64,000 nt of DNA from assembly GCA_963799395.1 (NCBI GenBank), contig CAWCWZ010000051.1:6595-70594 (forward strand), read 5' to 3'. Shown one piece after another: positions 11,323 to 32,301 of the stretch. Numbering within the stretch: position 1 is the first letter of the stretch; every line of letters begins with the position of its first letter. A program made the translations under genes and the position numbers. The notes under the pieces were generated by a model, which worked only from the letters and a program-made list of their open reading frames with translations, was not told the origin of the DNA and made no database searches. The DNA is from an uncultured Actinomycetes bacterium. GTDB taxonomy: Bacteria > Actinomycetota > Thermoleophilia > UBA2241.

Positions 11323-11448
11323 GTGCCATGTTGTTGCCGCTCCGGCCGCCGACCGCGACATGCGGCCACCGCAGAGTCGAACGGGCGCACCGGCGTCGAT
11401 CCGACCCTCTGGGGAATAGTGTCCGAAGCACACCGAGAGAGGGTAGCC

Positions 11449-11727
11449 ATGGTAGCCGCACACGCCAATCTGCTGGACGAAGTGCTGCATGCGATGACGC
11501 AGCTTGACCCCATGGTCTATTTCATGATCGTCGTCGTGACCATCGCCTTCGGGATAACGGCCATGGTGCTGGTCGAGCTCTTTCCCGGGCGTCCCGGCAC
11601 AGAGGCCCAGACGCCACCGGCCGAGGCCGACGAGAACGACCGCGAAGGTGCAAAGACCACGACCGTCGCAGCCGACAGAGCCCGCGCGGCTCTGAGACCT
11701 ACTTCGCCGGCAGGGCGGCGTTGATCG
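11449..11727 (+). CDS. hypothetical small membrane protein
   Basis: MVAAHANLLDEVLHAMTQLDPMVYFMIVVVTIAFGITAMVLVELFPG... with a strong RBS (GAGAGAGGGtagccATG). It is divergent from the Nur-like gene. Coding status is uncertain in high-GC DNA. Confidence 0.35.
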
Positions 11728-13365
11728 AAAGCGGCACCTGCACCGCGGTCGCGGCTTCTTCGACTAACACCTCTATCTGCCAGCGGCCCTCGACCGAGAG
11801 TTCAAGGCCGCTGCCCTGCCAAACGCCGCCCGGGCCCTTGCTCAGGACGAGGGTCGAGGGGGGCACCGTGGCCTGCCCGGGCAGCGAGAAGTCAAGCTGG
11901 ACGCTGCGCAGGTCCGTGAGCGGCCGCCCTGAGGCATAATCGCTCACGGTCGCCGTGAACTGGTTGGAGCCGACGGTCCCCGGGCTCACGACCAGTCGCA
12001 CGCGGACCGTGGTCGCGTAGTCACTGCCCGAAAGCACCACCTGGTTCGATCCCGACGCCCTGGCGGCCGTCGCCGCCTCCCTGCCCGTGGCAACGCCGCC
12101 GAGCACACCGGTCACCGCCAGGATGGCCACTCCCAGGACGAGCTCATTGCGCAGCGTGCGCCGAAAAGGAGGCAGAGCGTCGTCTTTTGCCAAGGTGGGC
12201 ACCTGCAGGAAGCGATTGCGCGCCCCCAGGGCGACCAGCGCCACAAAGAGCGCCAGCTTGACCAGCAGGAGACGGCCGAAGCTCGTGTGCAGGAGGTTGG
12301 CCGGCGCCCCGACCTCGGCCACGGCGCGAGACACACCGGTGAGCAACACGATGGCCAGGCCGATGGTAGCGACCGTCGAGAAGCGCCGGCCGGCAGCCGC
12401 CCGCTTGGCGCCCGGCAGCCCGCGCAGCCCGACCAGCAGCCGGCCAGGCCACCGACCCACACCCCGACCCCCATGACGTGCAGCCACTGCACGGTCAAAT
12501 TGAAGAAGCGATAGGGGGAGGGGCCGTTGGCGTGAGTCTCCCAGATGACCGTCATTACGGCAAAGGCGGCCGCGCTGCCCAGCGCAGCCAGCGTGGGACG
12601 GCAGGGCAGGGCCGCCGTGGCGGCCACCGCCAACCCGCAGAGGACCAGCACGGCGGTGAGCTGGGCCACCATCACGAGGCCCTCGGGTGTGCCAAAGAGC
12701 GGCAGCAGCGAGGGGGCACGCACGATGGCGCGCTCCGTCAGGATGAAGGTCGATACCCCCACCGCGGCCAGCGCCCAGCCCAGCCACAGCAGGGTGGGCC
12801 CTCCGGCGGGCAGTTTGCCCCGCCACACAAACCAGCACGTGCAGGCCGCCCCGAGAAGCAGGACCAAGCCCGCCCACAGCAGCCAGCGCCCGGCAGCCTG
12901 TGTGCCAGTCAGCCAGGGCGAGGTGCTGACGAACTTGCCGAAGGGCGCCACCTTGCCGATGTTGGCGACCCCGACCCCGAAGGCATAGGCGCCGGTCACA
13001 TAGTGGCCATCCAAGGCAGAGACCGTGTGCCAGTCCACCGTGTAGACGCCGTGAGGCAGGGGCCGGCTGAGCACGATGACGAGCTGCTCGGAGTTGCTGG
13101 GCACAGCATGGGAGGGCGAGGCACCGGGTACCGCCTGGCCCTGCGTGTTGACCACCTGGGCGCCCGACAGCGTCGGATCGACCGGCTCGGTGAAGGTGAG
13201 CAGGATCTGCTGCGGTGAACGCGCTACCGTGCCGTTGATGGCCGGGGAGGCATGAATCAGCAGGGCGTGCGCCGCAGCCTGTGGGGCCGGCAGCGCAAGC
13301 CACAGCCCGGCCACCAGCCCGACAAGGGCGACGGCGCGAGCCGTCACACGGGCGTGGGCGCGCAC
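11699..13365 (-). CDS. copper resistance/uptake CopC-CopD fusion (YcnJ-like) with C-terminal YtkA-like domain; apparent frameshift near 12350
   Basis: N-terminus has a signal peptide plus CopC (AHALLIHASPAINGTVARSPQQILLTFTEPV...VYTVDWHTVSALDGHYVTGAYAF). CopD TMs follow. The C-terminal part lies in the frame of ORF 11699..13303. Confidence 0.8.
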
Positions 13366-16953: not shown

Positions 16954-18469
16954 TCACCTACAGACCGACGATCGCGTCGAGGCGCGCCATGTCGAGGTGA
17001 GCTTCGACGTGGTCGGCGAGACGCTCGATGTCGGATGGGCCGGCGCCGCCAGTGCCCGGTGCGCGTCGGGCAGGCCGGCCGCGGCCCGCAGCCGCCCGAG
17101 GAACGCCTCCCTGAATTCGGCGGCGTCGAACAGGCCGTGCAGATAGGTGCCGCAGACCAGCCCGTCGGCGGAGACGGCGCCGTCGGCGTGGGTAGCCTCA
17201 GCGCTCGCCGCCACGTCCATGAGCGCGGCGACGCCGGGCGCCAGGGTTGTGGCACCCATGTGGATCTCGTACCCGTGCAGCGGCGTGCCCGCGGCCACAA
17301 GGGCCGAGCCGCTCGCTTCGCCGCTCACCCGCACCGTGCGCTTCGCTGCCCGGAACGTCGTGTCGACGTCGAGCAGGCCCAGGCCCGCCACCTCGGCGGC
17401 GGCCGATTCGACCCCCACGGGGTCGAGGATGCGGCGGCCCAGCATCTGGTAGCCGCCGCAGATGCCGATCACCGGTGTGCCGGCGGCGGCGGCCTGCGCG
17501 AGCGCGGCCGCGAGGCCGCGCTCGCGCAACCAGGCCAGGTCGGCCACCGTGCTCTTCGTGCCCGGCACGATGACGGCGGCGGCGGCCTGCAGGCCCTCCG
17601 GGGTGGTGACGAACTCGACGTCGACGTCGGGGTCGTCGGCGAGGGCATCGAAGTCGGTGTAGTTGCTGATGAAGGGCAGGCGTACGACGGCGATCCGCAG
17701 CGGCGCGCCCGGACGTCGGCGCCGCTCGTCGTCGATCGCCAGCGAGTCCTCCTCGTCGCCGCGCCAGTCGTTCAGGAAGGGCACGACGCCGAGGGTGGGC
17801 ACGCCGGTGCGCTCCTCGAGAAAGGCGAGTCCCGGGTCGAGCAGCGCCGCGTCGCCGCGGAACTTGTTGACGACAAAGCCGCGCACCAGCGCCTGCTCGG
17901 CCGGCGTGAAGAGCTCCATGTGACCGACCAGCGAGGCGAAGACGCCGCCCCGGTCGATGTCGCCGACCAGCAGCACCGGCGCCCGGGTGTGCAACGCCAC
18001 TCGCATATTGACGATGTCGCGGTCGCGCAGGTTGATCTCGGCCGGAACTGCCGGCGCCCTCGACCACCACGAGGTCGCTGGCCGCGCGCAGCCGGCCGAG
18101 CGCAGCCGTGACGACCGGCCAGACCTCCGCCTGGTAGGCGTGGTACCCGGCGACCGTCATGTCGTCGACCGGCCGGCCCATCACGACCACCTGACAGGCG
18201 CGCTCACTCGACGGCTTGAGCAGCACCGGGTTCATGTCGAGGTGGGGTTCCAGCCCGGCCGCGCCCGCCTGGTACACCTGGGCGCGGCCCATCTCGCCAC
18301 CGTCGGACGTGACGAACGAGTTGAGCGCCATGTTCTGCGCCTTGAAGGGCGCCACGCGCAGGCCGCGACGCGCGTAGATGCGGCAGAGGGCCGCGACCAG
18401 CACCGTCTTGCCGGCATGCGAGCCGGTGCCCTGGAGCATGACGATGCGGCCCGGCGGCGCGGTGCTCAT
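16954..18469 (-). CDS. cobQ: cobyric acid synthase; apparent frameshift near 18060
   Basis: N-terminal part (MSTAPPGRIVMLQGTGSHAGKTVLVAALCRIYARRGLRVAPFKAQNMALNS...VVVEGAGS) is in the frame of ORF 17198..19021. C-terminal GATase part (VLLVGDIDRGGVFAS...GICGGYQMLG...GYEIHMG) is in the frame of ORF 16954..18006. Confidence 0.85.
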
Positions 18470-18543: not shown

Positions 18544-19797
18544 TCAGGCCGCCGCGCCGTCGCCGGATACGGCCGACGCCAGTCTCGTCCGTAGCCGCCG
18601 CACGTCTCTCAACGTGAGGACCCACAACGAGGCGGCCAATCCGAGCCCGGCCGACAGCCAGCACGTGGTCGTCAGGCCGATCGCCGCGGTGACCGGCCCC
18701 GCCAGTGCCAGCCCGACCGGCCACAGGGCCAGCGAGCACATCCAGTCCCAGGCGCTGACGCGCGCGAGCGCCTCGTTGGGAATCTCGAGCTGTAGGGTCG
18801 TCGTCCAGAGCACCGAGTTCACCCCTACGGCCACGCCACGGAAGGCTTGCACGACGGTCAGCGCCACGAAATGTCCGCCGAGGGCCAGCACCAGCGGCGA
18901 GGCCGCGGCCGTCGCCCCGAGCAGCGCGCAGGCGACCATGGGACGTGCGAAACGAAGAAACGGCGCGCTTGCGCCGCCTACGAGGATGCCGCCGCTGAAG
19001 ACCGCGAGCACGATGCCCCAATGGGCCGCGCCGTGAGGGTGACCGTTCAGAACCAGCGGGCCGAGCACCTGGAACGGTGCCGAGACGATGAACAGCAGCA
19101 AGGCGGTGCGCAGGAGCATGGCCGCAAGCCAGGGCCGGTCCCGTACCTCTCGCCAGCCGTCGCGAAGCTCCCCGAGAAACGAGCCGACCTGCCGGACGCG
19201 CTCGGCCGGCACGACGCGCAACGTGGCGAGGAACCCGGCGCTGACCAGGAAGGTCGCGGCGTCGATGGCGACGGCACCACCCGGGCCGATGAAGGCGATC
19301 AGGGCGCCCGCCACGGCGGGGCCGACCATCAGGCCGATCCCGTAGGCAAAACCCAGCACGGCGTTGGCCGCCTGCACGTCGCGCTCCTCGACGAGTTGCG
19401 GCGTGAGGGCGCCGGCGGCGGGGACGAAGAAGGCCTGAGCGGCGCCGTAGGCGGCGAGAAGGACCACGAGCTCCCAGATGCGCGCGGTGTGCGTCAGCAG
19501 GAGAAGGGCAAGGATGGCCTGCGAACAGGCGCGCACGCAGTCTGAGACGAGCATCACGCGCTCGCGGCGCAGGCGGTCGCCCCAGACCCCGGCGACCAGG
19601 GTCAGCGCGACCAGCGGCGTGATCTGGGCGGCCAGGACAATGCCCAAGTCGGTCGCCGAGCCCGACATCCGCAGGACCGCGAAGGTGACGGCGACCGGGG
19701 TCAGGCCGTCACCGAAGGCCGAGATCGCCTGCCCCAGGAACAGATTGCGGAAGTTACGGACGCGCAGGACGTTCCAGCGCCGGATGAATCCCGTCAT
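18544..19797 (-). CDS. MFS transporter
   Basis: Intact 417-aa 12-TM protein (RNFRNLFLGQAISAFGDGLTPVAVTFAVL...). It sits between cobQ and the CbiR-like gene. Confidence 0.85.
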   Translation of the reverse strand: MTGFIRRWNVLRVRNFRNLFLGQAISAFGDGLTPVAVTFAVLRMSGSATDLGIVLAAQITPLVALTLVAGVWGDRLRRERVMLVSDCVRACSQAILALLLLTHTARIWELVVLLAAYGAAQAFFVPAAGALTPQLVEERDVQAANAVLGFAYGIGLMVGPAVAGALIAFIGPGGAVAIDAATFLVSAGFLATLRVVPAERVRQVGSFLGELRDGWREVRDRPWLAAMLLRTALLLFIVSAPFQVLGPLVLNGHPHGAAHWGIVLAVFSGGILVGGASAPFLRFARPMVACALLGATAAASPLVLALGGHFVALTVVQAFRGVAVGVNSVLWTTTLQLEIPNEALARVSAWDWMCSLALWPVGLALAGPVTAAIGLTTTCWLSAGLGLAASLWVLTLRDVRRLRTRLASAVSGDGAAA

Positions 19798-19869: not shown

Positions 19870-20733
19870 TCAGCCGGCCGGGATCAGCCGCTCGCGCCGC
19901 AGGTACGCAACGCTCGCCGACAGGCCTTCGGGCGTGAGCACCTCGATGATGGTGCTGACCCCGGACCGCCGAGCCGCCGCCAACACCGCGCCCGCGTCCA
20001 CCACGCCGCAGCCCAGGGCCAGGTGAGAGTCAACGCCGGTCGCGCCGTCCACCGGCCCCGCGTTGTCGTGCAGGTGCACGTGGCGGAGCTGCGCCTGCGG
20101 ATCGCGCAGGAACTCCGCGAGCGCCTCGCAAGCCGCGGCGTGCCCCGTGTCGAGCGCCAGGCCGAGCGCGCCAAGGTCGAGGTCGCCGGGGCGCGCGAAA
20201 TGGCTGTGGTCGGCACCCATCAGGTTCTCGAGCGCCACCTCCACGCCGTACTCGTCCTGAAGGGCCGCCAGCTCGACGATGCTCCGCTGGAGCGCATCGC
20301 GAACGGCGCCGCTGCGCACGATGGGTGTGAGGTCGTAGTCGGGGTGCAGCACGTAGACGGCGGCGCCGACATCTGCGGCCGCCTCGAGGTGGCGGCGGTG
20401 CACGGCGACCGCGGCCTTGCGGGCCGCCTCGGACGGGTGCCCCACGTCGGCGTTCTCCCAGGGGCCGTGCACGGTCAGCCGCAGGCCGCTCTGCACGACG
20501 GCCCGCCGGTTGGCCGCCCTGATCAGACTGTGGTTGTAGTCGCTGTAGACCTCGGCGAGCTCGGCGACGGATGCGATGTGGGCCAGAGCGGCCGCCAGCG
20601 GCTGGTCGAACCAGGCCGTGGCGGCGAGGCCGATGTCGGGGGGCAGGAGCACGCGGCGGCCTACCTCCGACTCACCTGGACGGCACCCGGGTCCTGGCCG
20701 AGCCTGCACCTCAGAAGGGGTACGTCTTGCCAC
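19870..20733 (-). CDS. sugar phosphate isomerase/epimerase (xylose isomerase-like TIM barrel, AP endonuclease 2 superfamily); possible CbiR-like cobamide-remodeling enzyme
   Basis: Intact 287-aa ORF with TIM-barrel metal-ligand pattern (VHGPWE...VLHPDY...ALENL...HVHLHDN). The CbiR suggestion rests on context (cobQ, DUF4430, corrinoid uptake genes) and on fold family only. Confidence 0.6.
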   Translation of the reverse strand: MARRTPSEVQARPGPGCRPGESEVGRRVLLPPDIGLAATAWFDQPLAAALAHIASVAELAEVYSDYNHSLIRAANRRAVVQSGLRLTVHGPWENADVGHPSEAARKAAVAVHRRHLEAAADVGAAVYVLHPDYDLTPIVRSGAVRDALQRSIVELAALQDEYGVEVALENLMGADHSHFARPGDLDLGALGLALDTGHAAACEALAEFLRDPQAQLRHVHLHDNAGPVDGATGVDSHLALGCGVVDAGAVLAAARRSGVSTIIEVLTPEGLSASVAYLRRERLIPAG

Positions 20734-22054
20734 TGAGCGCGACCACGACCTCCGACGTGGTCAGAAGCGGCATGGCAAGAGTCGTGCCGTAGTGGTAGAA
20801 GGCACCGGAGCTCGCCTGCAGCGAGAGCAGAAAGCTGATCGGCGTCTTGCCGCCCTTCTTCCACGCTCCACCGGCGGGGTTCTGCCCGACGGCGCGGATC
20901 GCCTGGACGGCCCATGCGGTCGACTCGGCGTTGGTCGTGCCGCCCATCCCGGAGGTAAAGCCCCCGTTGCTCATCTGCTGGCTGTGCAGATAGGAGAGGG
21001 CGCGCTCGATCGCGGTGTTCGAGGCGGAGATCCCGCCTGACCTCAGCGCCTCGACGGCCGCGGCCGTGTCATCGGGGTCCGGCGCCCCGCCGGGGGTGAA
21101 GGAGAACCCACCGTTCGACGCCTGCTGGCTGGTAAGCCAGGAAACCGACTTCGTGAGCTGCGAAGAGCTCTGCCCCGCCGCCCTGAGAGCGATCACCGCC
21201 CAGGTGGTGGTGGAGACGGCGGCGTAGGTGTCGCTCCCCCCCGGCGTCGTGGAGAAGACTCCGCTCTGGCTGTTCTCGTAGGCGAGGAGATGAGCCACGA
21301 GATCGATGTGTCCGCTGCCCGCCGTGCTTATCAGCGACGAGACCCCGGCGGCGTCATATGTGATGATCATCTTGGCGTAGAAGTTGGCGGGGTTGCTGGC
21401 CGTCCCGGAGCCGCCCGTGGCCACCTCGGTGATGTCCAGCGACTGCAGGTAGGCGATCGGGCCCTTACCCCCCGAGCGCCTGAACGTCGAGGGACTCTTG
21501 CCGGTAGCCGCGATAGCCTGAACCACCCAGGGCGTCGTGGTCGTCGTCTGCCCAGACGCGCCAAACCCTCCCGAGGTCAGCTGATTGGCGCGAAAATAGG
21601 AGACGGCCTTGCCGACCGAGCTGCGCACCTGCGAAGCCAGCGATGAGGAGCTGGAGGTCTTGGTCTTGGTCGGCTTGGGCTTCGGGGTGGACTTCTGGCT
21701 CGATGACTGCAGCGTTGAGGCCGCCGAACGGGGGGCCGACGGGGCCTGCACCGTACCGGCACCGGACTTGGCCGCCGGTTTCGTTGCCGCCGACTTCGTT
21801 GCCGCCGGCGTCGGCCCCGAAGCCGCCGACGCGGTCGCGCCCGGCGAAGGCGCCGCAGCATCCGCGAGGCTCGAGATCGCTGCCGCCGATGACGCGACCG
21901 GCGAAGAGGCCGCGGACGGCGACCCACCGCCCGACGACGACGAGCCCCTCCCGTTGACCAAGACAAAGACGCCGATCGCCACCACAAAGCCAACCACGAT
22001 GATCGCCGCGATGCTGCGCTGGACCGCTGCCATGTGTCGCGGACCACTGTTCAC
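20711..22054 (-). CDS. membrane-anchored prenyltransferase/squalene-cyclase-like alpha/alpha-toroid repeat protein
   Basis: N-terminal TM (IAAIIVVGFVVAIGVFVLV). A Ser/Ala/Pro/Thr-rich linker is followed by at least four QxxxGGF repeats (NQLTSGGFGA...PWVVQAIAATG; QQASNGGFSF...DTAAAVEALRS; QQMSNGGFTS...TAWAVQAIRAVG; LQASSGAFYH). Intact 447 aa. Confidence 0.7.
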   Translation of the reverse strand: MNSGPRHMAAVQRSIAAIIVVGFVVAIGVFVLVNGRGSSSSGGGSPSAASSPVASSAAAISSLADAAAPSPGATASAASGPTPAATKSAATKPAAKSGAGTVQAPSAPRSAASTLQSSSQKSTPKPKPTKTKTSSSSSLASQVRSSVGKAVSYFRANQLTSGGFGASGQTTTTTPWVVQAIAATGKSPSTFRRSGGKGPIAYLQSLDITEVATGGSGTASNPANFYAKMIITYDAAGVSSLISTAGSGHIDLVAHLLAYENSQSGVFSTTPGGSDTYAAVSTTTWAVIALRAAGQSSSQLTKSVSWLTSQQASNGGFSFTPGGAPDPDDTAAAVEALRSGGISASNTAIERALSYLHSQQMSNGGFTSGMGGTTNAESTAWAVQAIRAVGQNPAGGAWKKGGKTPISFLLSLQASSGAFYHYGTTLAMPLLTTSEVVVALSGKTYPF

Positions 22055-22250
22055 GCGAGCGCCTCCACCATCCCGAACGGACCTGAGCCGCCCGAGCCGT
22101 CACGCACCTCGGGCGCGGCCGACGGTCCCGTTGCGTGTACTATCGGCCGCGCGCCGAGTACTACGCCCTCACCCCCGCTGCCCGAACCGGCCACGAGCAG
22201 TGACGCAGCCCCCGCGCGCTGCATGGCCGTCGTGAGGACGCAGCGGACCA

Positions 22251-23309
22251 CTACTTCCCCTTGGGGATGACGATGGTCTGGACGGTCGTGCGGCCCCAGC
22301 CGTCCATGGCGGTGACCTTGACCCTGATGGACGTGGTCTTGGGCGCCGCGGGGCTCAGATGCAGCGTCAGCGTCTGCGCGCCGGCGGCTCGTGCCCCACT
22401 CCACTTCGCGAGGACCTTGGAGCCCTTGGTGACGGCGATGGTGACGGCCGAGCGTTCGCTCAGCTTGAAGTGCACCTTGACCGTCTTGGCGTTTGTGCGC
22501 CCTGCCGCAAGCGCGCCGAGAGCGGGCTTGGCGCCCACGTTGAGCAACACCGTCGCGGAGGGTGCGTAGACATCGGTGTCCATGGCCTTCTCAGACCAGA
22601 CGGCATACGTGCCCGACGCCAGGTCCTTGACCGCGAGCGTGGAGGCGGCACCCCCGTAGACCTGGCTGCCCACGTGAACGGTGGCGCCGTCGATGGCCGG
22701 GAACTGCGCCGGAGTCTGGATGTCGGTGGTCGAGAAGCGCGTTGCGTCGGCCTGGCTGTGGACATCGGCGAGGTTCGCCCCGACGGTGCTCACGGTGACG
22801 GTCTGACCGGGCGTAAAGCCATGCTTTGCCGTGCCCCCCGTGACTCTGGTCACAAGCAGGAACGCCGGCTTGCTGAACGTGGCGTCGGGGTTCTGGAACC
22901 ACAGGTAGCTGTCGCCGGCGACCGTCTGCAGGCTGCCCGCGCCGACAGGCGAAGCGTAGCCATTGACGGCGATCTCCCACCAATTGCTGTCGTCGCCGGC
23001 CATCGCGAGTCCGTCGATCGAGTTGACATACGGACCGGAGCCGCTGACGCTCATGTCCCAGGGCAGGCCACCCAACTGCAAGGCGGCCGCGGTGGCTCCC
23101 AGAGCGGTAGCGTTCGTCGTGGTGAATGAGGTGCCGTCGGTATCCACGATCTTGCCGCCGGCGGCGCTCTCGCTGACCGTCGTCCTGGGCAGCACCTGGA
23201 ATGTGGCCCCTTGCACACGCACGCTGCTCGACACGGCCAGCGCGGCAGGCGCGGCCACGAGAGCGATGGTCGCCACGGCGACCAGCACCAGAATGATCCT
23301 CTGCTTCAT
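22251..23309 (-). CDS. secreted DUF4430 (transcobalamin beta-domain-like) protein with C-terminal Ig-like region
   Basis: Signal peptide MKQRIILVLVAVATIALVAAPAALA. DUF4430-type core: VRVQGATFQVL...PYVNSIDGLAMAGDDSNWWEIAVNGYASPVGAGSLQTVAGDSYLWFQ. Intact; ORF-track N-terminal extension discounted. Confidence 0.7.
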   Translation of the reverse strand: MKQRIILVLVAVATIALVAAPAALAVSSSVRVQGATFQVLPRTTVSESAAGGKIVDTDGTSFTTTNATALGATAAALQLGGLPWDMSVSGSGPYVNSIDGLAMAGDDSNWWEIAVNGYASPVGAGSLQTVAGDSYLWFQNPDATFSKPAFLLVTRVTGGTAKHGFTPGQTVTVSTVGANLADVHSQADATRFSTTDIQTPAQFPAIDGATVHVGSQVYGGAASTLAVKDLASGTYAVWSEKAMDTDVYAPSATVLLNVGAKPALGALAAGRTNAKTVKVHFKLSERSAVTIAVTKGSKVLAKWSGARAAGAQTLTLHLSPAAPKTTSIRVKVTAMDGWGRTTVQTIVIPKGK

Positions 23310-23537
23310 GTGAGCTCCTTTCGTGAAACGGACCCCTGAGTCTACGTCGAACACAACTGCGGTCGTCGAACTGATACTGCGTATCATATACTGCAGTGGT
23401 CTAGTGTTGGCTAGAGCAAGCATGCCGACGTAGCTGTGAGGGTCCCCACACGTGACCGTGGAGAGTCAGCTGGGTCGCGCCGAACCTCGGCGGTGGGCCT
23501 TGAGACGGCTGACGTTGACACCTTCGACGGTGCCACT

Positions 23538-24503
23538 GTGACGCGCATCGCGTTTGCGCACAGATCGTCTGCGACCTCGCGGCCGCACATCACAGCCGCG
23601 ATCGTCGTGCTCGTGCTCCTGCTGGCCGTCGGAGTCGCGGGCTGTGCCGGAGTGCGGGGCAAGTGCACACCAGCGGCCAAGGGGCACGTGCCCGGCGCCG
23701 GCGAGGTGCGACTCATCGTCTCGGAGCACTTCGGCACCACCGTCATGCTCGACGAAGTCGTGCCCTGGAAACAGGAGCTCAACGTGATGACCCTTCTGGC
23801 CGCACACGCTCGCGTCGACACCGAGTACGGTGGCGGGTTCGTGAGCGCCATCAACGGTGTCAAGTCGACCTTTGGCGGCGTCTCGTCGACGCAGGCCGCC
23901 GACTGGTTCTACTGGGTCGACGGGATCATGGCCGGTGTCGGGGCCGCCGACTACCGGCTTCACGGCGGCGAGACCGTCTGGTGGGACTTCCATCAGTGGG
24001 TCGACGCGATGTCGATCCCGGCGACGCTCTCCGCCTTCCCAGCGCCGTGGAAGGGCCGTCCCCTGGAAGTCGCCACCAACGAGGCGTGGCCTGGGCTTCA
24101 GCAGTGGACGCAGGCGTCGGGGTTGACCCTGGGCCAGACGAGCTCCCTGGCCACAGGCGCTCCCGCCGGCGGCCTCATCGTCGCGACACCGCAGGAGGTC
24201 ACCACCACGAGGTGGCTCAGCCAGCTTCTCGACAGTGGCGACGGCGTGCAGATGGTAAATCTGAAGGGAGGAGGGATCTCGCTGCTCTCACCCGCTGGTG
24301 CTCAGGGACCTCCTGCGGACGCGGTCGCTTTGGCTCTGCCCGATACCAACAACGGCAACCGCCCCTTCTTGGTCGTGCTGGCCGATTCGACCTCAGCTGC
24401 GCAGCGCATGTTCATACTCCTCACGCCCAACGCCCTCGCGGGCCACGTGGCTGTGGCGTTGGTCAACGGCTCCCTTGTCACGCTGCCCTGGCACGCCCAG
24501 TGA
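23538..24503 (+). CDS. DUF4430 (transcobalamin beta-domain-like) lipoprotein
   Basis: Lipobox LLLAVGVAGC. DUF4430 core: GEVRLIVSEHFGTTVMLDEVVPW...GGGFVSAINGVKSTFGG...DWFYWVDGIMAGVGAADYRLHGGETVWWDFHQW. GTG start ~23538 (track ORF starts earlier at 23436). Confidence 0.7.
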   Translation: MTRIAFAHRSSATSRPHITAAIVVLVLLLAVGVAGCAGVRGKCTPAAKGHVPGAGEVRLIVSEHFGTTVMLDEVVPWKQELNVMTLLAAHARVDTEYGGGFVSAINGVKSTFGGVSSTQAADWFYWVDGIMAGVGAADYRLHGGETVWWDFHQWVDAMSIPATLSAFPAPWKGRPLEVATNEAWPGLQQWTQASGLTLGQTSSLATGAPAGGLIVATPQEVTTTRWLSQLLDSGDGVQMVNLKGGGISLLSPAGAQGPPADAVALALPDTNNGNRPFLVVLADSTSAAQRMFILLTPNALAGHVAVALVNGSLVTLPWHAQ

Positions 24504-25509
24504 ACGCGCCAGCCGCGAACGATCTCAGCAAGCCGCCGGCCACTGCCGCCTCGTCTGGGAGTCGCGTGCCGGCCTTCCGCGTGGCGCCGGCGATGCCGAG
24601 ACCGACCTCCAAGCGGCGACTCGAGCCGCGTCGCCGCGGCCTTGCGCGCCGCCAGCCCGTCGCCATCGTCGCCTACGTGGGCGCGCTCACCCTCGCCGCC
24701 CTGGTGCTCGTCAATCCCCTGCAGGTCACGGCGCTACTGGCGCTCTGCCTCGTCGTCCTGGTCGCCGCCGGGCGCGGCCGGGCGGCCTGGCCCTATCTCA
24801 AGACGGCTCTCTACATCGGTGGTTTCCTGGCCATCGTCAACCCGCTGATCAGCCGCAGCGGCAGCACCGTGCTCTGGCAGCTCCAGCTTGGCCCCTTCGA
24901 CGTGCCGATCACCATCCAGGGAATCGCCTACGGTGTGACGACGGCGCTGCGCATCATCGCCGTGATCACGGCCTTCGCCCTCTTCTCCTCGTCCTCGACC
25001 CCGACGACCAGCTCGGCCTCATGAGCCGGCTGTCGTTTCGCACCGGTCTTGTGATCTCGTTGGCCTCCCGGCTCTTGCCGGTGTTCTCGCGCGACGCGGC
25101 GCGCATCTCCAATGCCCAGCGCGCTCGCGGGGTAGAGCTCGACGCCGGCCGTCGACGCGCCCGCGTCGCGGCGCGCGTACCTTTGCTGGCCGCGCTCCTC
25201 GCTCAGAGCCTCGAGCGGGCCGTCGACGTCGCCGCCTCCATGGAGGCACGCGGCTTCGGCGCCCGCGACCGTTCGCACTGGTCGCACGGGCGGCGCTGGA
25301 GAACTGCCGACCTGGTCACCACGGCGGCGGCTCTGCTTGGCGCGGCGGCGCTGCTCGGGGGCCTCTTCGCCGGGGCCTTCTCGTACAACTTCTATCCCTT
25401 GCTGGACGACCCCTGGAGCCAGCTCGCCGGCATCTGGTGGCTGCTCGCCTTCGCGGCGCTCATCGTTCCCGCACTCTGGACCCTGCCGTGGCGACGCTCG
25501 CGCGACTGA
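24500..25509 (+). CDS. ecfT: ECF transporter T component (EcfT/CbrU-like); apparent frameshift near 24990
   Basis: First segment ALYIGGFLAIVNPLISRSGSTVLWQLQLGPFDVPITIQGIAYGVTTALRIIAVITAFALFS is in the frame of ORF 23663..25024. Second segment RLSFRTGLVISLASRLLPVFSRDAARISNAQRARGVEL... is in the frame of ORF 24298..25509. GTG start overlaps the upstream TGA (GTGA). Confidence 0.75.
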
Positions 25510-27161
25510 CCGACGTCACCTACTGGTACCCCGGACGCGAGAGGCCGGCTCTCCGCGACGTCTCGCTACGGATCGGTCCAGCCGAGGTGATCCTCGTGGT
25601 CGGCTCCTCGGGCAGCGGCAAGTCGACCTTGTTGCGCTGCCTGAACGGTCTCGTGCCGCACTTCCACGGCGGCACCCTCGCCGGGCACGTGGAGGTCGAC
25701 GGCAGGGACACGCGCACGTCACACACACACGAGCTGGCCCATGCCGTCGGTCTCGTCTTCCAGGATCCCGAGAGCCAGTCGGTGATGACCACAGTCGAGC
25801 GTGAGATCGCCTTTGGCCTCGAGAACAGGGGGGTGCCGAGCGCTGCGATCAGCCGCCTCGTCGAAGAGGCGCTTATTCTCCTCAGCCTGTCGCACCTGCG
25901 ACACGCCTCGCTCTCGACACTTTCGGGTGGAGAGCTGCAGAAGGTCGCTCTGGCCGCGGTCGTGGCCACCCAGCCGCAACTGCTGCTCCTGGACGAGCCG
26001 ACTTCGCAGCTCGACCCCGTGAGCTCCGAGGAGCTGCTCGCCGCCATCAGGCGACTCGCGGAGGACACGGGCTCGACCATCATCCTCGCCGAGCATCGCA
26101 CGGAGCGCTGCCTGCACCTGGTCACCCGCGTGCTATATATGGATGACGGCGTTCTGGCAGAAGACGCCGATCCGCAGGACTTCGCGGACTGGGCGCTGGA
26201 CGGACACCGCGGCTTGCTGCCGCCGGTCGCTCGCCTCTTCGCCCGCAGGACCAGCGACCGCTCGGCCGGCGCCGGCGACCCGGATCTGCCGATGACGGTC
26301 AAGGACGCTCGCCGTTTGCTTGTGACCCACGAAGACCCGCAGCCGCGTCGCAGCCCGGCCACGTCATGGAAACCCTCCGGCGGCATCGTCCTCGAAGCGC
26401 GCAAGCTGGCGATCGGCTACGACCCCGACGAGCCGCTGCTCGAGGGCTTGAGCTTCGGTCTGGCGCGCGGCGAGGCAGTGGCCCTCATGGGCGAGAACGG
26501 CGTGGGCAAGTCGACGCTGATCCGTCACTTCATCGGCTTGGCGCGGCCGCTGGCCGGCAAGGTCGTGCTGCTCGACCGCGACGTCTCCGAGATCACCGTG
26601 GCGGCGGCGGCACGTGACTGCGCCCTCATGGGTCAGAACCCGAACGACCTGTTCGTGAAGGACACTGTGGCCGAGGAGATCGCCTTCACGCTCGACGCAC
26701 TGGGTATCACCGGCGAGCGGCACGACTCCCTGACGGCCAAGATCGTCGCCGAGCTTGATCTGGAAGCTCTCCTGCAGCGGAACCCACGCGACCTGTCGGG
26801 CGGCGAGCGCACGCGGGTCGCGCTCGCCGCCACCGTCTGCGGAGACCCCACCATGGTCGTGCTCGACGAGCCCACGAGAGGCATGGACGCACGGCACAAG
26901 GCCGAGCTTGCCGCGACGATACGCCGCTGGGTCAGTGCGGGCCGCTGCGTCGTGCTCGTCACGCACGACGTGGAGTTCGCGGCGAGCGTCGTCGAGCGGG
27001 TGATCGTGCTCGGCGACCGCGGCCTGCTGGCCGACGGGCCCGTGGCCGACGTGCTCGACGGGTCGCTGTTCTTCTCGACGCAGATCAACCGTCTGTTCCG
27101 CCGCGTGCTTCCCGGCATCCTGCGCGAGGACGAGATCCAATGGGGAGAGGGAGCCTCGTGA
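25488..27161 (+). CDS. ecfA: fused duplicated ECF transporter ATPase (EcfA-EcfA', CbrV-like)
   Basis: Intact 574-aa ORF with two complete ABC cassettes (GSSGSGKSTLL / LSGGELQKVALA / LLLLDEP and GENGVGKSTLI / LSGGERTRVALA / MVVLDEP). Confidence 0.9.
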   Translation: MATLARLTDVTYWYPGRERPALRDVSLRIGPAEVILVVGSSGSGKSTLLRCLNGLVPHFHGGTLAGHVEVDGRDTRTSHTHELAHAVGLVFQDPESQSVMTTVEREIAFGLENRGVPSAAISRLVEEALILLSLSHLRHASLSTLSGGELQKVALAAVVATQPQLLLLDEPTSQLDPVSSEELLAAIRRLAEDTGSTIILAEHRTERCLHLVTRVLYMDDGVLAEDADPQDFADWALDGHRGLLPPVARLFARRTSDRSAGAGDPDLPMTVKDARRLLVTHEDPQPRRSPATSWKPSGGIVLEARKLAIGYDPDEPLLEGLSFGLARGEAVALMGENGVGKSTLIRHFIGLARPLAGKVVLLDRDVSEITVAAAARDCALMGQNPNDLFVKDTVAEEIAFTLDALGITGERHDSLTAKIVAELDLEALLQRNPRDLSGGERTRVALAATVCGDPTMVVLDEPTRGMDARHKAELAATIRRWVSAGRCVVLVTHDVEFAASVVERVIVLGDRGLLADGPVADVLDGSLFFSTQINRLFRRVLPGILREDEIQWGEGAS

Positions 27162-27961
27162 GCCCGCAAGAGCCCAAGGCTCTGCCTGGTCGCCTGCGGC
27201 GCGATCTCGTCGCCTGGCTGCTGCTGGCCGTTCTCGGTGTCGTCGCGCTGGTGGCGGCAGGCTATGCCGTCCTCGACCCCGGCGCCGTCAACTGGGGCTT
27301 CCTCAGTCTCGTACTCATCGCCGCCGTCGTCGGCTTCGCACTGGTCGCCTATGGCCTGCGCGATTCGAGCGCCAGCGAGCTGTCGCTGATCGCCGCCCTG
27401 GCGGCCCTGGCCACGGCCGGTCGTGTGCTCTTCGCCTCACTGCCCAACTTCAAGCCGGTGACCTTCATCGTTCTCGTCTCCGGCGTCGCTCTGGGGCCGG
27501 CTCCGGGCTTCATGGTGGGCGCGACGACGGCCGTGGTCTCCAACCTGTTCTTCGGTCAGGGGCCGTGGACGCCCTGGCAGATGCTCGCCTGGGGACTGGT
27601 CGGCGTAGTGGGCGGGCTCATGGGCATCAAGGGCAGGCGGCCCCGGCGCTGGGAGCTGGTGCTGGTCGGAGCGGCGCTGTCCGTCGGCTTCGACTGGTTC
27701 GTGACCCTCTGGATGTATCTCTCCTACACTCCGCACACCTGGCCCGCGCTCGTCGCGCTCTACGGCCAGGGCCTGCCTTTCGACGTGTCGCACCTGAGCG
27801 CCACGGCCATACTGGCGGCGCTGTTCGGTCCCCGGGCGATCGCCATCATCGCGCGTTTCCGCGCCCGGACGAGCGTGAGGTTCCTGCCGGCGTCACCAGC
27901 GCGCCGTGCACTGCCCAGCCTTGACGGTCCGCAGCGATTCGACAATGCTTCTCAGCCATGA
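27140..27961 (+). CDS. ECF transporter substrate-specific (S) component (CbrT-like candidate)
   Basis: Intact 273-aa protein with 6 predicted TMs. Overlaps the ecfA stop. Family assignment within S-components is not possible by eye. Confidence 0.65.
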   Translation: MGRGSLVSPQEPKALPGRLRRDLVAWLLLAVLGVVALVAAGYAVLDPGAVNWGFLSLVLIAAVVGFALVAYGLRDSSASELSLIAALAALATAGRVLFASLPNFKPVTFIVLVSGVALGPAPGFMVGATTAVVSNLFFGQGPWTPWQMLAWGLVGVVGGLMGIKGRRPRRWELVLVGAALSVGFDWFVTLWMYLSYTPHTWPALVALYGQGLPFDVSHLSATAILAALFGPRAIAIIARFRARTSVRFLPASPARRALPSLDGPQRFDNASQP

Positions 27962-28414
27962 AGGTCCAAAACCCACACCAGTCCTCGATCGACGAGGTCT
28001 TCGCCGCCCGCGGCATCCCGCTCACACGGCAGCGCCGCGCCATCTGGCAGTACTTCGCGTCGGCCGGCCGGGCGAGCACCGTCCCGGAGGCCGCGGAGGC
28101 TCTCCGCACGCAGGGCATCGGCCAGGCGACCGTCTACCGTGCGGTCGGCTTGCTCGACGGAGCTTGGCCTGCTGCTCAGCGTCCACGTCGGCGAAGGGCG
28201 CCCCTGTTATGCGGCGCCACCGGTCGGTCACAGTCATCCGCTCATCTGTGGAGTCTGCCGCAGGATCGTCGATTTCGACGGTGATGGGGACCTCCGCTAC
28301 CTCGAGAAACAGCTCGAGACCACGACGGGGTTTGCCATCTACGGCCATCATCTGGAGGTCTACGGCATCTGCCCTGACTGCAGACGAGAGCAACGCGAGG
28401 CCATGCCCTCCTAG
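27958..28414 (+). CDS. Fur-family transcriptional regulator (Zur/PerR-like); apparent frameshift near 28150
   Basis: N-terminal part MKVQNPHQSSIDEVFAARGIPLTRQRRAIWQYFASAGRASTVPEAAEALRTQGIGQATVYRAVGLLD is in ORF 27958..28284. C-terminal part VGHSHPLICGVCRRIVDFDG...YGHHLEVYGICPDCR is in ORF 28139..28414. ATG overlaps the S-component TGA (ATGA). Confidence 0.7.
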
Positions 28415-28931: not shown

Positions 28932-29438
28932 TCATTGTCGCGCGATGGCCCCGCCATGGGCGCGCGTCGCCAGGCCCTCGAGATCGAGATGATCGAGGTC
29001 CCTGCGGATGGTCATCTGCGACACGCCGAGCAACGCGCTCAAAGACGAGACGCGCACGGCCCGCCGCTCGTCGAGTAGCGCGATGATGTGTGCGCGGCGC
29101 TCGGCGGCAAGAGTTTGCGGCGCCCTGCCCGCCTGTTGGTGCGACCCCACCGGCCGCTGCTCAGGGGGTTCGTCACGCGAGCACCGGTCTACGGCGGCAA
29201 ACACTTCGGGCCCACCCGCCCGCAACGCCACGATATCGGCCAGCGGGACGCGCCAGTGACCGGCGGACGTCTGGAAGGCGTCCGGCAGCAGGCCACTCTC
29301 GAGGGCCGCCCGCATGACGCCGGGATGCACGGCAAGTATGCGAGCGGCGTCTCGTAGCGAGCGCAATCCGGCCTCGTGCTCGATGACGTTGGCGATCTCC
29401 GCTCCCTCGGTAGCGTTCACCCAGCGATGCGGCATCAT
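28932..29438 (-). CDS. DNA-binding protein with excisionase-type HTH (HTH_17-like) plus C-terminal DeoR-type HTH
   Basis: LRSLRDAARILAVHPGVMRAALESGLLPDAFQTSAGHWRVPLADIVALRAG followed by HIIALLDERRAVRVSSLSALLGVSQMTIRRDLDHLDLEGLATRAHGGA. Start taken at MMPHRW. Confidence 0.55.
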   Translation of the reverse strand: MMPHRWVNATEGAEIANVIEHEAGLRSLRDAARILAVHPGVMRAALESGLLPDAFQTSAGHWRVPLADIVALRAGGPEVFAAVDRCSRDEPPEQRPVGSHQQAGRAPQTLAAERRAHIIALLDERRAVRVSSLSALLGVSQMTIRRDLDHLDLEGLATRAHGGAIARQ

Positions 29439-29478
29439 TCCCTCCTTTTCTGGCAACGGCCACGGCTCCTTGCGCGCA

Positions 29479-30075
29479 CTAGAACTCGATCCCGGCGCGT
29501 GCCTGCACACCGCGTTGGTAGTAGTGCTTGACCTCATGCATCTCGGTGACCAGGTCGGCCCGTTCGATCAAGGCCGGTGGCGCGTAGCGGCCGGTGATCA
29601 CGAGCTCGACTGCCGGCGGCCGCGCTTCAACCAACTCGAGGCAATCGCGCGCCGAGAGCAGGCCGAACCAGACCGCGACGTCGAGCTCGTCGAGCACGAC
29701 GAGGTCGTTCTCGCCTGAGATAAGCGCGGCGGCGGCGCGGGCGTGGCCCTCGAAGGCGTGCCGGCGGTGCACCGTGGTGACCTCGTCGCGATGGATGCAC
29801 CCGGGATCGCCGAACTGCTCGACGGTGATCAGCGGGTTGTCGCGCAACGCGGCAATCTCGCCGTAGGAGCTGGCCTTCATGAACTGACCGACCCAGACCC
29901 GCTTACCATGACCGGCGGCCCGCAGGACCAGGCCGAAGGCGGCCGTAGTCTTGCCCTTGCCCTCACCGGTGTAGATGTGCACGTAGCCGCGGCCTGTCGC
30001 AGCTCGAGCGCCAAACTCAGCGCTCCCAGACGTTCGGTCGAGCTTCGCAGACAGCGTATGCGCGGTCGTGGGCAT
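29479..30075 (-). CDS. cobO: cob(I)yrinic acid a,c-diamide / cob(I)alamin adenosyltransferase
   Basis: MPTTAHTL...GRGYVHIYTGEGKGKTTAAFGLVLRAAGHGKRVWVGQFMK...VVLDELDVAVWFGLL...ELVITGRYAPPALIERADLVTEMHEVKHYYQRGVQARAGIEF. RBS AAGGAGA precedes ATG 30075. ORF-track N-terminal extension discounted. Confidence 0.9.
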   Translation of the reverse strand: MPTTAHTLSAKLDRTSGSAEFGARAATGRGYVHIYTGEGKGKTTAAFGLVLRAAGHGKRVWVGQFMKASSYGEIAALRDNPLITVEQFGDPGCIHRDEVTTVHRRHAFEGHARAAAALISGENDLVVLDELDVAVWFGLLSARDCLELVEARPPAVELVITGRYAPPALIERADLVTEMHEVKHYYQRGVQARAGIEF

Positions 30076-30159
30076 GGCTTCTCCTTTGTGGCGATGGAGT
30101 CCGTGGACGATGCGAGGAATGCGCGGCACGAGGAATGGCTCTGGGGGAGTGGGCGGAGG

Positions 30160-30200
30160 AGAGTCGCAACAACACGGTGAGCCGGCCTGATCGGCCGGGA
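30160..30200 (-). terminator. putative riboswitch expression-platform hairpin (attenuator) in cobO leader
   Basis: Minus-strand CCGGCCgatcaGGCCGG stem-loop followed by CUCACCGUGUUGUUG. It lies between the B12 box and the cobO RBS. Confidence 0.35.
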
Positions 30201-30269
30201 CCGAAGTGTTTCTCGAGCGCCGATGTGAAGGCACGCCGGTCCTCCCGCGAGGTTCGCCGTCAGCGTCTC

Positions 30270-30425
30270 CTCGGGGCCCGTCTCCTGGCTTGCCGCCTGA
30301 AAGCCTACTGGTCGCGCCTTCCCGTCTCTCTCTTGAGAGACAGTGGCATGCCGGCGACGTTCGTCAGCGGTCACAGTTGCGGGGCAGCACCGGTCTTGCA
30401 CCGGTTTCCGTGTGCCTCCGAGGCA
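30270..30425 (-). ncRNA. cobalamin (AdoCbl) riboswitch
   Basis: Minus-strand sequence reads GGTGcaagaccGGTGCTGCCCCGCAACTGTGAccgc...GCCACTG...GGGAAGGC...AGGCggcaAGCCAGGAGACGGGCC. It contains the conserved CCCGCAACUGU, GCCACUG and GGGAAGGC elements and a near-consensus B12 box (AGCCAGGAGACGGGCC). It lies upstream of cobO. Confidence 0.85.
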
Positions 30426-30495
30426 GTTACTTGAGAAACATTATCAAATGGCTCTCGCGTCGGTCAAGCGCCGGGCGGGCAGTTTGGCGCCGGGT

Positions 30496-32301
30496 ATGCT
30501 TCACCTACGGATGAAGACCTTCTGGCGCATCACCAAGCTGCTCGGCGACTACCCGTGGCTCGTCTTCGTCGGTTTCAGCACGGCGCTGCTGCAGACGGCC
30601 GCGTCGCTCGCCATCCCCTGGCTCACCCGCGGGGTCATCAACAAGGCGCTCGTGCCCGGCAAGACGAGCCTGCTGATCTGGTACGGCCTGGCGATGCTCG
30701 GGATCGGCGTCCTGCGCTTCGGCTTCGCCGTCGCCCGCCGTCTGTCGACCGGCAAGGTCAGCCTCGCCATCGAGTACGACCTGCGTAACCGCATGTGGGG
30801 TCATCTGCTGCGCCAACCGTTCACCTACTTCGACCGCTGGCCCACCGGGCAGCTCATGTCGCGGGCCATGGCCGACATCCAGAACGTGCGCATGTTCCTG
30901 GGCTACGGCCTCATCTTCTTCACCACCAACATCTTCACGATGGTCGCGGTCACCGTGCTGATGTTCTTTCTGGACTGGCAGCTCGCCCTGCTCAGCCTGG
31001 CGTTCCTGCCACTCCTGCTGCTCGTCACCGTGCGCTTCAGCCGCCGCCTGCAGCCGATCCTGCGCGACGTCCAGCAGAAGATCGCCGACGTCACCGCGAC
31101 GGCTGAAGAGAACGTGACCGGCTCGCGGATCGTACGCATCTTCGCCCGCGAAGACGACGAGCTCGCCAAGTTCTCCGACCGCAGCACGAGGGTGTTCGAG
31201 GCCGAGGTGAGCGCCGCCCGTATCCGCGCCTTCTACGTGCCGCTGATCGGCTTTCTGCCCAATCTCGCGGTCGTCGTGCTGCTCTACGGGGGCGGCCGCG
31301 CGGTCATCGACGGCAGCCTCAGCCTGGGCTCGCTCGTGGCTTTCTACAGCTACCTGATGATGCTCATCTACCCGGCCCAGGTGATCGGCTGGCTCACCGG
31401 CCTCGCCCAGCGCGCCATCGCCTCGGGGCATCGCGTGTACGAGATCCTCGACGCGCCGATCGAGATGCTCGAGCGCCCCGACGCGACCCCCGTGCCGAGC
31501 ATCCGCGGCGAGGTGCGCTTCGAGAACGTGTCGTTCTCGTACGTCGACCGGCCGGTGCTCGAGAACGTCGACCTCAAGGTGCCGGCCGGCCACACGATCG
31601 CCCTCGTGGGCCACACCGGCTGCGGCAAGACGACCCTGACCAACCTGGTGCCGCGCTTCTACGATACCGGCGACGGCCGCATCCTGATCGACGGCCTCGA
31701 CGTGCGCGAGGCCCGCCTCGCCGATCTGCGCAGCCACATCGGCGTCGTCACCCAGGACCCGTTCCTGTTCTCGACGACCGTCGCCGACAACATCCGCTTC
31801 GGTCGCCCCGAGGCAAGCGACGAGCAGGTGCGTGAGGCGGCCGAGCGCGCCCAGGCCGCGTCGTTCATCGAGGCCTTGCCCGACGGCTACGAGACGGTCG
31901 TCGGCGAGCGCGGCCTCTCCCTGTCGGGCGGCCAGCGCCAGCGCATCGCCATCGCTCGCGCGCTCGTCGTCGATCCCCGGATCCTCATCCTCGACGACGC
32001 CACCTCGAGCGTCGACGCCGAGACGGAGTTCAAGATCAGGCGCGCACTGGTCGAGGTCATGAAGGGCCGCACGACCTTCATCATCGCCCACCGGCCGTCG
32101 ACCATCTCGCTGGCCGAGGAGATCGTGGTGATGGACAAGGGACGCGTCGTCGAGCGCGGCGTCCACGCCGAGCTGATCGCCGGCGACACCCTCTACCGGC
32201 GCATGTTCGGCGCCGCGGAGCTCGAAGGCACGACACTCGATGCGGCCGACGGCTTCGCCGGCGATGGGCGCGGCGCGCGGCGCCGGGGCAAGGTGGGCTG
32301 A
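30496..32301 (+). CDS. ABC transporter ATP-binding/permease protein (type I exporter half-transporter)
   Basis: Intact. Six-TM domain plus NBD (GHTGCGKTTL, LSGGQRQRIAIARAL, ILILDDATSSVD). Start chosen at MLHLRMKTFW; the track ORF starts earlier at 30343. Confidence 0.85.
   Translation: MLHLRMKTFWRITKLLGDYPWLVFVGFSTALLQTAASLAIPWLTRGVINKALVPGKTSLLIWYGLAMLGIGVLRFGFAVARRLSTGKVSLAIEYDLRNRMWGHLLRQPFTYFDRWPTGQLMSRAMADIQNVRMFLGYGLIFFTTNIFTMVAVTVLMFFLDWQLALLSLAFLPLLLLVTVRFSRRLQPILRDVQQKIADVTATAEENVTGSRIVRIFAREDDELAKFSDRSTRVFEAEVSAARIRAFYVPLIGFLPNLAVVVLLYGGGRAVIDGSLSLGSLVAFYSYLMMLIYPAQVIGWLTGLAQRAIASGHRVYEILDAPIEMLERPDATPVPSIRGEVRFENVSFSYVDRPVLENVDLKVPAGHTIALVGHTGCGKTTLTNLVPRFYDTGDGRILIDGLDVREARLADLRSHIGVVTQDPFLFSTTVADNIRFGRPEASDEQVREAAERAQAASFIEALPDGYETVVGERGLSLSGGQRQRIAIARALVVDPRILILDDATSSVDAETEFKIRRALVEVMKGRTTFIIAHRPSTISLAEEIVVMDKGRVVERGVHAELIAGDTLYRRMFGAAELEGTTLDAADGFAGDGRGARRRGKVG

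Follow-up and report, generated by a model that had tools for sequence, protein, structure and literature searches.

The window analysed here is a 64,000-nucleotide stretch of contig CAWCWZ010000051.1 (assembly GCA_963799395.1) from a soil-type, Thermoleophilia-like actinobacterium, and it carries two divergent gene series that together encode two DUF4430 proteins, a membrane-anchored alpha/alpha toroid and an energy-coupling factor (ECF) transporter homologous to ECF-CbrT. The link of this DUF4430/toroid/ECF system to corrinoids is strong, and we consider it probable that the DUF4430 and toroid genes encode the proteins that capture the ligand outside the cytoplasm for a dedicated corrinoid importer of the ECF-CbrT type. 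An original prediction, made from the sequence alone, had described the locus as a split transcobalamin, in which a secreted DUF4430 protein (here DUF4430-A) and the toroid would be the beta-like and alpha-like halves of a two-protein device for corrinoid capture. Profile searches place both features as predicted, with PF14478 for the former and PF00432, PF13243 and PF13249 for the latter all above cut-off, and the proposed corrinoid function agrees with the riboswitches of related loci, the homology of the S-component to CbrT and the cobQ, cobO and CbiR-like genes nearby. The device itself is larger than was thought: DUF4430-A and the toroid are indeed linked by fusions, but the conserved unit, judged from gene order and fusions in relatives, appears to be a multi-protein ECF-CbrT capture system with two DUF4430 paralogues and a toroid, the latter mostly as part of the S-component polypeptide. 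By their textbook definition, ECF transporters are ATP-binding cassette (ABC) importers without extracytoplasmic binding proteins. Many species-level genomes carry the riboswitch-controlled ECF-CbrT system with three conserved surface proteins, one of them usually S-component-fused, and the system would offer a concrete and testable example in which substrate is captured before it reaches an ECF S-component, an exception to the rule that such transporters lack a binding protein. The B12 carriers of animals would also have a bacterial counterpart in it, which may be their ancestor.

On the minus strand, the genes for DUF4430-A, the toroid, a TIM barrel, a major facilitator superfamily (MFS) transporter and cobQ follow each other with small gaps or overlaps; the divergent plus-strand series consists of a DUF4430 lipoprotein (here DUF4430-B), CbiQ, a fused CbiO-CbiO, the ECF S-component and a Fur-family gene. 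Both the same-strand continuation into cobQ and the divergent lipoprotein gene at the head of an ECF transporter had been foreseen and are confirmed, with the qualifications that the CbiR match of the TIM barrel is below cut-off and that cobQ is frameshifted. The ECF module has a CbrT-homologous S-component, a CbiQ-type T-component (PF02361) and two ABC ATPase domains (PF00005). The sole significant PDB match of the S-component, over ~165 residues (E 1e-11), is 6FNP_A, and 6FNP is the structure of ECF-CbrT. The substrates that ECF-CbrT imports are cobalamin and cobinamide, without competition from hemin (PMC5997447).

One scan of species-representative genomes yielded 80 related loci, one per species and mostly from Solirubrobacterales, which were profiled with the window proteins and a DUF4430-A profile. 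An nhmmer profile found a cobalamin riboswitch upstream, on the same strand, in every one of the 68 orthologous loci that could be assessed, and all eight riboswitch sites in a sample of seven loci were confirmed with Rfam at 72–90 bits. A PduO-type adenosyltransferase gene is adjacent in 58 loci. The neighbourhood in the window is also rich in corrinoid genes. The TIM barrel gene overlaps the stop codon of the toroid gene, and the top NCBIfam match of its product is CbiR (NF041277) at 65.1 bits, below the equivalog cut-off of 105; it lies on the same strand as cobQ, and its counterpart in L087 on that of CbiB and CobQ, while in L003 a CbiR-like homologue sits inside the ECF operon. In L087, a locus 82% identical to the window, CbiZ and CbiB lie between the MFS gene and cobQ (L087 14836–16574); tblastn found no match to either protein anywhere in the 64-kb window, including the space between its own MFS gene and cobQ. 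A riboswitch-led cobO is found 2 kb away. Its leader is the only cobalamin riboswitch of the window, which thus precedes cobO and neither of the DUF4430 operons, and none was detected in the divergent intergenic region (23310–23600), even at E <= 1. The ligand in the window and its clade is presumably a corrinoid as well.

DUF4430-A is a protein of 352 residues, with a Sec signal peptide (residues 1–26, MKQRIILVLVAVATIALVAAPAALA|V) and no membrane anchor of its own. A transcobalamin-beta-like SLBB/DUF4430 domain (residues ~27–150) is followed by a beta-rich C-terminal half, and database protein P0121 is identical to it. DUF4430-B has a lipobox (LAVGVAG|C) and an uncertain start codon, GTG at 23538 or 23607; a gene of its type heads the ECF operon in 73 loci. 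Both proteins exceed the PF14478 gathering cut-off of 23.8 bits (29.8 bits for DUF4430-A, 46.5 bits for DUF4430-B), and neither matched a solved structure by sequence, whether profiles or single sequences were used. An AlphaFold2 model of DUF4430-A residues 27–165, built from 22 sequences, has a predicted local distance difference test score (pLDDT) of 82. In a Foldseek search of the PDB, ranks 1–19 of this model were all beta domains of transcobalamin, haptocorrin or intrinsic factor, or the bacterial DUF4430 structure 3u7z, at E-values from 2e-5 to 4e-3, with the next match at E > 0.5; on the isolated beta domain of human transcobalamin (5no0) the model has a TM-score of 0.68. Because the sequence searches of the PDB gave nothing, the fold match adds independent support to the Pfam match, and the predicted likeness of the DUF4430 domain to the transcobalamin beta domain is, on this model, well supported at the level of the fold. 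A homology search with the DUF4430-A domain profile returned only five matches. BtuH of Bacteroides was considered as a DUF4430 relative and rejected; the BtuH paper mentions neither transcobalamin nor any DUF family.

The toroid protein (447 residues) consists of a transmembrane anchor (residues ~14–33), a low-complexity linker of ~100 residues rich in Ser, Ala and Pro, and the toroid itself (residues ~135–447); database protein P0001 is identical to it. Signal peptide, lipobox and transmembrane anchor place DUF4430-A, DUF4430-B and the toroid, respectively, outside the cell. The toroid exceeds the gathering scores of PF13243, PF13249 and PF00432, with 38.2, 30.9 and 29.0 bits, and its domain is modelled as a single alpha/alpha barrel (pLDDT 94.7, predicted TM-score 0.93). 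This alpha6/alpha6 fold can be superposed on the alpha domain of transcobalamin, intrinsic factor and haptocorrin. By sequence, however, the nearest relatives of the toroid family profile are squalene-hopene cyclase (E 3e-37) and the beta subunits of prenyltransferases. A Pfam search of the protein at E <= 0.01 gave no match to PF01122, the family of the eukaryotic cobalamin binders, and the family profile matched no transcobalamin, intrinsic factor or haptocorrin chain in the PDB at E <= 1. The description as alpha-domain-like therefore holds for the fold, but transcobalamin is not the nearest relative. Residues 192–197 of the toroid read DPDDTA, the same form as the DxDDTA motif of class II terpene cyclases. 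Across 23 aligned family members the motif is not conserved (DTDSTA, NPDMTA, DSNDTA and EADMTG are among the variants), and we rejected it as a sign of cyclase activity.

The family is large in Thermoleophilia and Solirubrobacterales, and the window itself has a second member, 35–37% identical by tblastn to the L087 toroid, which is the closest relative of the first toroid. The two copies proposed for each half are thus two DUF4430 genes at one locus and two toroids at two loci, the second toroid having no DUF4430 gene beside it. This second toroid gene is translationally coupled to MotA/ExbB-like and DUF2149 genes (50341–53690, plus strand). L006 has this module too (8435–12514), behind a cobalamin riboswitch and a DUF4430 gene, and in L013 (3930–13000) it closes a whole ECF operon. 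The recurrence of this module suggests a step of corrinoid capture driven by the proton-motive force in a monoderm, in which MotA/ExbB and DUF2149 may strip tightly bound corrinoid off the surface toroid, a TonB-like task without an outer membrane.

The partnership of DUF4430-A, toroid and transporter can be read from the architecture of relatives. Among 90 toroid open reading frames (ORFs), 60 are on the C-terminus of an ECF S-component, 3 on the C-terminus of a DUF4430-A-type domain, and 27 stand alone. The DUF4430-A::toroid fusions, in L032, L055, L083 and database protein P0102, join the two domains in the order of the two window genes, of which the beta-like one comes first, after a gap of 196 bp the toroid. 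L001, L002, L087 and L088 share the adjacency seen in the window, and in L003 the two genes are ~6 kb apart within the same locus; metagenome homologues of the two proteins whose contigs have identical lengths suggest at least six further pairs that share a contig. Outside the clade of the window the recurrent order is a cobalamin riboswitch, a DUF4430-A-type gene, a DUF4430 lipoprotein gene, CbiQ, CbiO-CbiO and the S-component, with the toroid fused or adjacent. In the S-component::toroid fusions (P0045 and P0035), a hydrophobic segment separates the six-helix S-component from the toroid, which accordingly lies outside the cell, and this segment corresponds to the N-terminal anchor of the stand-alone toroid of the window. 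The fusions and adjacencies support a functional link between DUF4430-A and the toroid, and there is good genomic evidence that DUF4430-A would work with the toroid and the toroid beside the S-component.

From this we propose how the system may work. DUF4430-A, DUF4430-B and the anchored toroid would capture corrinoids such as cobalamin or cobinamide on the outer side of the membrane, with the corrin most likely held between the toroid face and the DUF4430 domain, as in transcobalamin. The DUF4430 proteins and the toroid would then pass the corrinoid to the CbrT-like S-component, and CbiQ and the fused CbiO-CbiO ATPase would drive its import. Physical contact between DUF4430 and the toroid, hand-over to the S-component and the direction of transport are inferred. 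Inside the cell, CobO would adenosylate the corrinoid, and the CbiR-like phosphodiesterase and CobQ would remodel or complete it, to which relatives would add CbiZ and CbiB. In most relatives the toroid extends the C-terminus of the S-component, to which a seventh transmembrane helix connects it; in the clade of the window it would have been split off with its own transmembrane anchor and moved, together with DUF4430-A, to the divergent operon.

The window clade also differs in its regulation. No riboswitch was found at the system operons of the window, L087/L088, L001/L002 or L003/L007. Alignment of the divergent intergenic region of the window, L087, L088, L001 and L003 reveals a conserved palindrome, which reads TGATACTGCGTATCA in the window and TGATAATTATCATCA in L003. 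It fits TGATAATnATTATCA, the 7-1-7 Fur-box consensus of the Fur-family operators of Bacillus. A pattern search allowing up to three mismatches found two such boxes in the window, against 0.02 expected, and 17 across 1.65 Mb of loci, of which 15 are in the window clade, each before a system gene. Every promoter of the system that was examined in this clade has such a box. In relatives the boxes are at 8723 and 8857 (L001), 4119 and 9929 (L003), and 3370 and 9924 (L087), and one is 72 nt ahead of the detached DUF4430-A gene of L003. An inverted-repeat tool, at its settings, found nothing in the intergenic region; the palindrome came from the alignment and the pattern search. In the window, L087 and L001/L002, the next gene after that of the S-component belongs to the Fur family. 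Against NCBIfam, the protein of the window operon has only sub-threshold PerR, Fur and Zur matches, which leaves it unassigned among Fur, Zur, PerR, Nur and Irr. Given the distribution of the box, we conclude that one protein-controlled regulon would join both DUF4430 genes, the toroid, the ECF module and cobO in this clade.

A second Fur-family ORF of the window runs in frame, with no stop codon, into CbiM (MHIPDGY...; 9848–11461, minus strand), followed by CbiQ and CbiO (7759–9261 and 7764–9068). CbiM requires a free N-terminus, so the fused frame points to internal initiation or to a lost stop codon. This locus is predicted to be a cobalt/nickel ECF importer with its own Fur paralogue. The links of the box to cobO and of a Fur paralogue to CbiM favour a cobalt or corrinoid signal over iron. 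It is possible, and we put it forward tentatively, that a protein regulator has taken the place of the cobalamin riboswitch in this Thermoleophilia clade. The candidate would be the Fur paralogue encoded at the end of the ECF operon; it would bind the 7-1-7 box at every system promoter (at the ECF operon, the DUF4430-A/toroid operon, the cobO leader and the detached DUF4430-A gene) and respond to cobalt or a corrinoid, not iron. A new sensor of metals or corrinoids might come to light through such a swap from riboswitch to Fur-type box.

Several observations weigh against the system being a corrinoid importer, and they have to be set beside the rival explanations. The window system operons, like those of L001, L003 and L087, have no riboswitch and have instead a Fur-box-like operator and a Fur-family gene, which would fit a role linked to iron or haem; moreover, the sole experimental study of a split alpha/beta ECF system, on Lactobacillus sakei, reported uptake of haem and not of B12 (bioRxiv 10.1101/864751). 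On these grounds the substrate in the window clade could be haem or a different iron tetrapyrrole, with its uptake controlled by iron-Fur, as was claimed for Lsa1836-1840 of L. sakei. We regard this as improbable, as the same box is also on the promoter of the riboswitch-controlled cobO, the toroid operon runs on to a CbiR-like gene and cobQ (with CbiZ and CbiB in L087), and the other Fur paralogue of the window sits on the CbiM cobalt importer, suggesting that these paralogues sense Co or Ni. Furthermore, the S-component is a homologue of CbrT, in which hemin does not compete with B12, and the orthologous operons are riboswitch-controlled wherever they could be assessed. That count of 68 overstates the independence of the evidence, because the loci are mostly from Solirubrobacterales and are not independent samples. 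It also counts against a corrinoid importer that several genes of the system are frameshifted: if the frameshifts were real, they would mean a system in decay.

Class II terpene cyclases are closer to the toroid than transcobalamin is, a further point against the main reading. The proteins that the toroid matches best, by sequence and by structure, are squalene-hopene cyclase, drimenyl diphosphate synthase and MstE, and its DPDDTA resembles the class II DxDD motif, so that it could work outside the cytoplasm as a terpene-cyclase-, prenyltransferase- or glycoside-hydrolase-like enzyme, with a lipid or glycan of the envelope as substrate and with DUF4430 next to it by chance. This is very unlikely, as the protein consists of one domain outside the membrane and has no isoprenoid genes near it, and as its family varies in that motif and is covalently fused, in relatives, to S-components or DUF4430 behind cobalamin riboswitches. 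An importer of free cobalt or nickel ions, with the DUF4430 proteins as metal binders, would agree with T and A components from the CbiQ and CbiO families, with a regulator of the Fur type and with the deposition of 3u7z as a 'putative metal binding protein'. Such an importer is equally hard to credit, given that the S-component is CbrT-like and not CbiM/CbiN, that the window has a separate and complete CbiM-CbiQ-CbiO system (7759–11461), and that the DUF4430 fold matches corrinoid-binding domains specifically. Finally, the three surface proteins could bind corrinoid independently and pass it on stepwise, like BtuG, BtuH and BtuJ of Bacteroides, with no alpha/beta heterodimer. The isolated beta domain of transcobalamin can bind cyanocobalamin alone (PDB 5np4), there are two DUF4430 paralogues to one toroid, DUF4430-A is ~6 kb from the toroid gene in L003, and the partner to which most relatives tether their toroid is the S-component and not a DUF4430 protein. 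Natural DUF4430-A::toroid fusions speak against such a relay, as does the lack of an anchor in DUF4430-A, which would need a partner to remain at the cell surface, and we give it a low but appreciable probability, higher than that of the other alternatives.

The idea of a split transcobalamin-like system is already published (PMC1796856; bioRxiv 10.1101/864751). Burroughs et al. (2007, Biol Direct 2:4; PMC1796856) defined the transcobalamin-like SLBB clade that is now PF14478/DUF4430, described bacterial SLBB fusions to alpha/alpha toroids on either side together with a second, paralogous SLBB protein in the operon, noted the link to CbiO and CbiQ, and predicted scavenging of B12 or its precursors. 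As in those systems, secreted SLBB proteins are combined here with an alpha/alpha toroid; there, however, the two are fused and come mainly from Firmicutes and archaea, whereas in the actinobacterium of the window they are separate genes, with a Fur-box-like site rather than a riboswitch, and the S-component::toroid fusion of its relatives is not mentioned in that study. In L. sakei Lsa1836-1840, the beta-like Lsa1839 and the alpha-like Lsa1840 belong to an ECF operon and were modelled as a heterodimer, and the haem assignment rests on docking and deletion of the whole operon (bioRxiv 10.1101/864751). Compared by its published description, that system likewise has separate secreted alpha- and beta-like proteins beside a dedicated ECF module (S, T and fused A-A'), but its genes are co-directional in one operon while those of the window are divergent, and the evidence gathered here favours corrinoids.

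ECF-CbrT of Lactobacillus delbrueckii (Santos et al. 2018, eLife; 6FNP) has a homologous S-component and is an ECF-type importer of cobalamin and cobinamide, but it uses a shared ECF module and has no extracytoplasmic accessories, whereas the window module is dedicated and comes with three surface proteins. The mammalian carriers transcobalamin, intrinsic factor and haptocorrin share, at the fold level, the alpha6/alpha6 toroid and the beta-grasp domain with its hairpin insert; they are single chains with alpha before beta, in contrast to two genes, beta first, with two beta paralogues and a membrane-anchored toroid. CbiR of Akkermansia muciniphila (Mok et al. 2020, mBio; PMC7733943) is likewise an AP-endonuclease-2 TIM barrel whose gene keeps company with transporters and cobamide genes, and the likeness is one of sequence, at 65 bits for the window protein against the cut-off of 105. 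A literature search on ECF transporters with a prenyltransferase or toroid and cobalamin found no papers, and none was found in which a bacterial DUF4430 or toroid protein is shown to bind a corrinoid. In no retrieved paper did we find the prevalence of the S-component::toroid fusion, the arrangement of two DUF4430 paralogues behind riboswitches across an actinobacterial order, the swap from riboswitch to Fur-type box, or the recurring toroid-MotA/ExbB-DUF2149 module; the regulatory features of the window clade we consider new.

Genes were selected by third-position GC and then checked against Pfam and NCBIfam; their positions are listed in the table below.

Features of the window in and around the predicted corrinoid capture system (~ marks approximate frameshift positions)
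Feature	Position	Strand	Evidence
DUF4430-A ('long'), secreted	22251..23309	-	PF14478, AlphaFold2 model, Foldseek
Membrane-anchored alpha/alpha toroid	20711..22054	-	PF00432, PF13243, PF13249
CbiR-like xylose-isomerase/AP-endonuclease-2 TIM barrel	19870..20733	-	PF01261 E 3e-25
MFS transporter (MFS_1/MFS_3, H+ antiporter-type)	18544..19797	-	profile matches; same position in L087/L088
cobQ (cobyric acid synthase), two frameshifts (~18040, ~17080)	16954..18469	-	NF001989 357 bits
Fur-box-like 7-1-7 palindrome TGATACTGCGTATCA, divergent promoter region	23372..23386	.	pattern search, alignment
DUF4430-B lipoprotein	23538..24503	+	PF14478 E 5e-12
CbiQ-type ECF T-component, frameshift ~24986	24500..25509	+	PF02361 in two frames; tblastn with L087 CbiQ
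Fused CbiO-CbiO (EcfA-A') ATPase	25437..27161	+	two PF00005 domains
ECF S-component, CbrT homologue	27140..27961	+	PF20221/PF07155/PF12822; 6FNP_A
Fur-family regulator gene, ECF operon end, frameshift ~28157	27961..28411	+	phmmer and tblastn with L001/L087 Fur
DeoR-type helix-turn-helix protein downstream of cobO	28932..29537	-	PF08220; kept in L087/L088
cobO/btuR ATP:corrinoid adenosyltransferase, probable start 30075	29479..30234	-	PF02572 E 4e-59; tblastn
Cobalamin riboswitch before cobO	30258..30457	-	RF00174 82.4 bits
Second Fur-box-like site, overlapping the -10 of a promoter-like site before the cobO riboswitch	30432-30446		pattern search
Second surface toroid: signal peptide, toroid, Big_13 Ig-like domain, C-terminal transmembrane segment; frameshift ~51080	50341..52138	+	
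MotA/ExbB-like gene, coupled to second toroid	52122-53117	+	
DUF2149 gene, coupled to second toroid	53136-53690	+	

The window has a G+C content of ~70%, and its closest relatives are Thermoleophilia metagenome-assembled genomes. By tblastn against intact orthologues of L087, six frameshifts were located in the window (~14799, ~17080, ~18040, ~24986, ~28157 and ~51080), affecting cobQ (twice), cbiQ, fur, the second toroid and a DUF4418 gene; cobQ, for example, is split into three frames by the intact CobQ of L087. The assemblies of relatives have long-read-style contig names and one of them, L088, has similarly split genes, and we therefore read the frameshifts as probable long-read indel errors of the assembly rather than decay.

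Some further genes flank the system. CopC and CopD copper-resistance domains lie in overlapping frames (11699–13365, minus strand) beside the CbiM locus, and together these genes form a metal-handling neighbourhood. Two exporter-fold ABC half-transporter genes (ABC_membrane and ABC_tran; 30343–34268, plus strand) diverge from the cobO leader, and the annotated start of the first overlaps the cobO riboswitch. The cobO gene and a DeoR-type gene converge on the ECF operon. These two make up the riboswitch-controlled operon (28932–30457, minus strand), an arrangement that is kept in L087 and L088 and that puts a transcription factor under the control of a B12 riboswitch.

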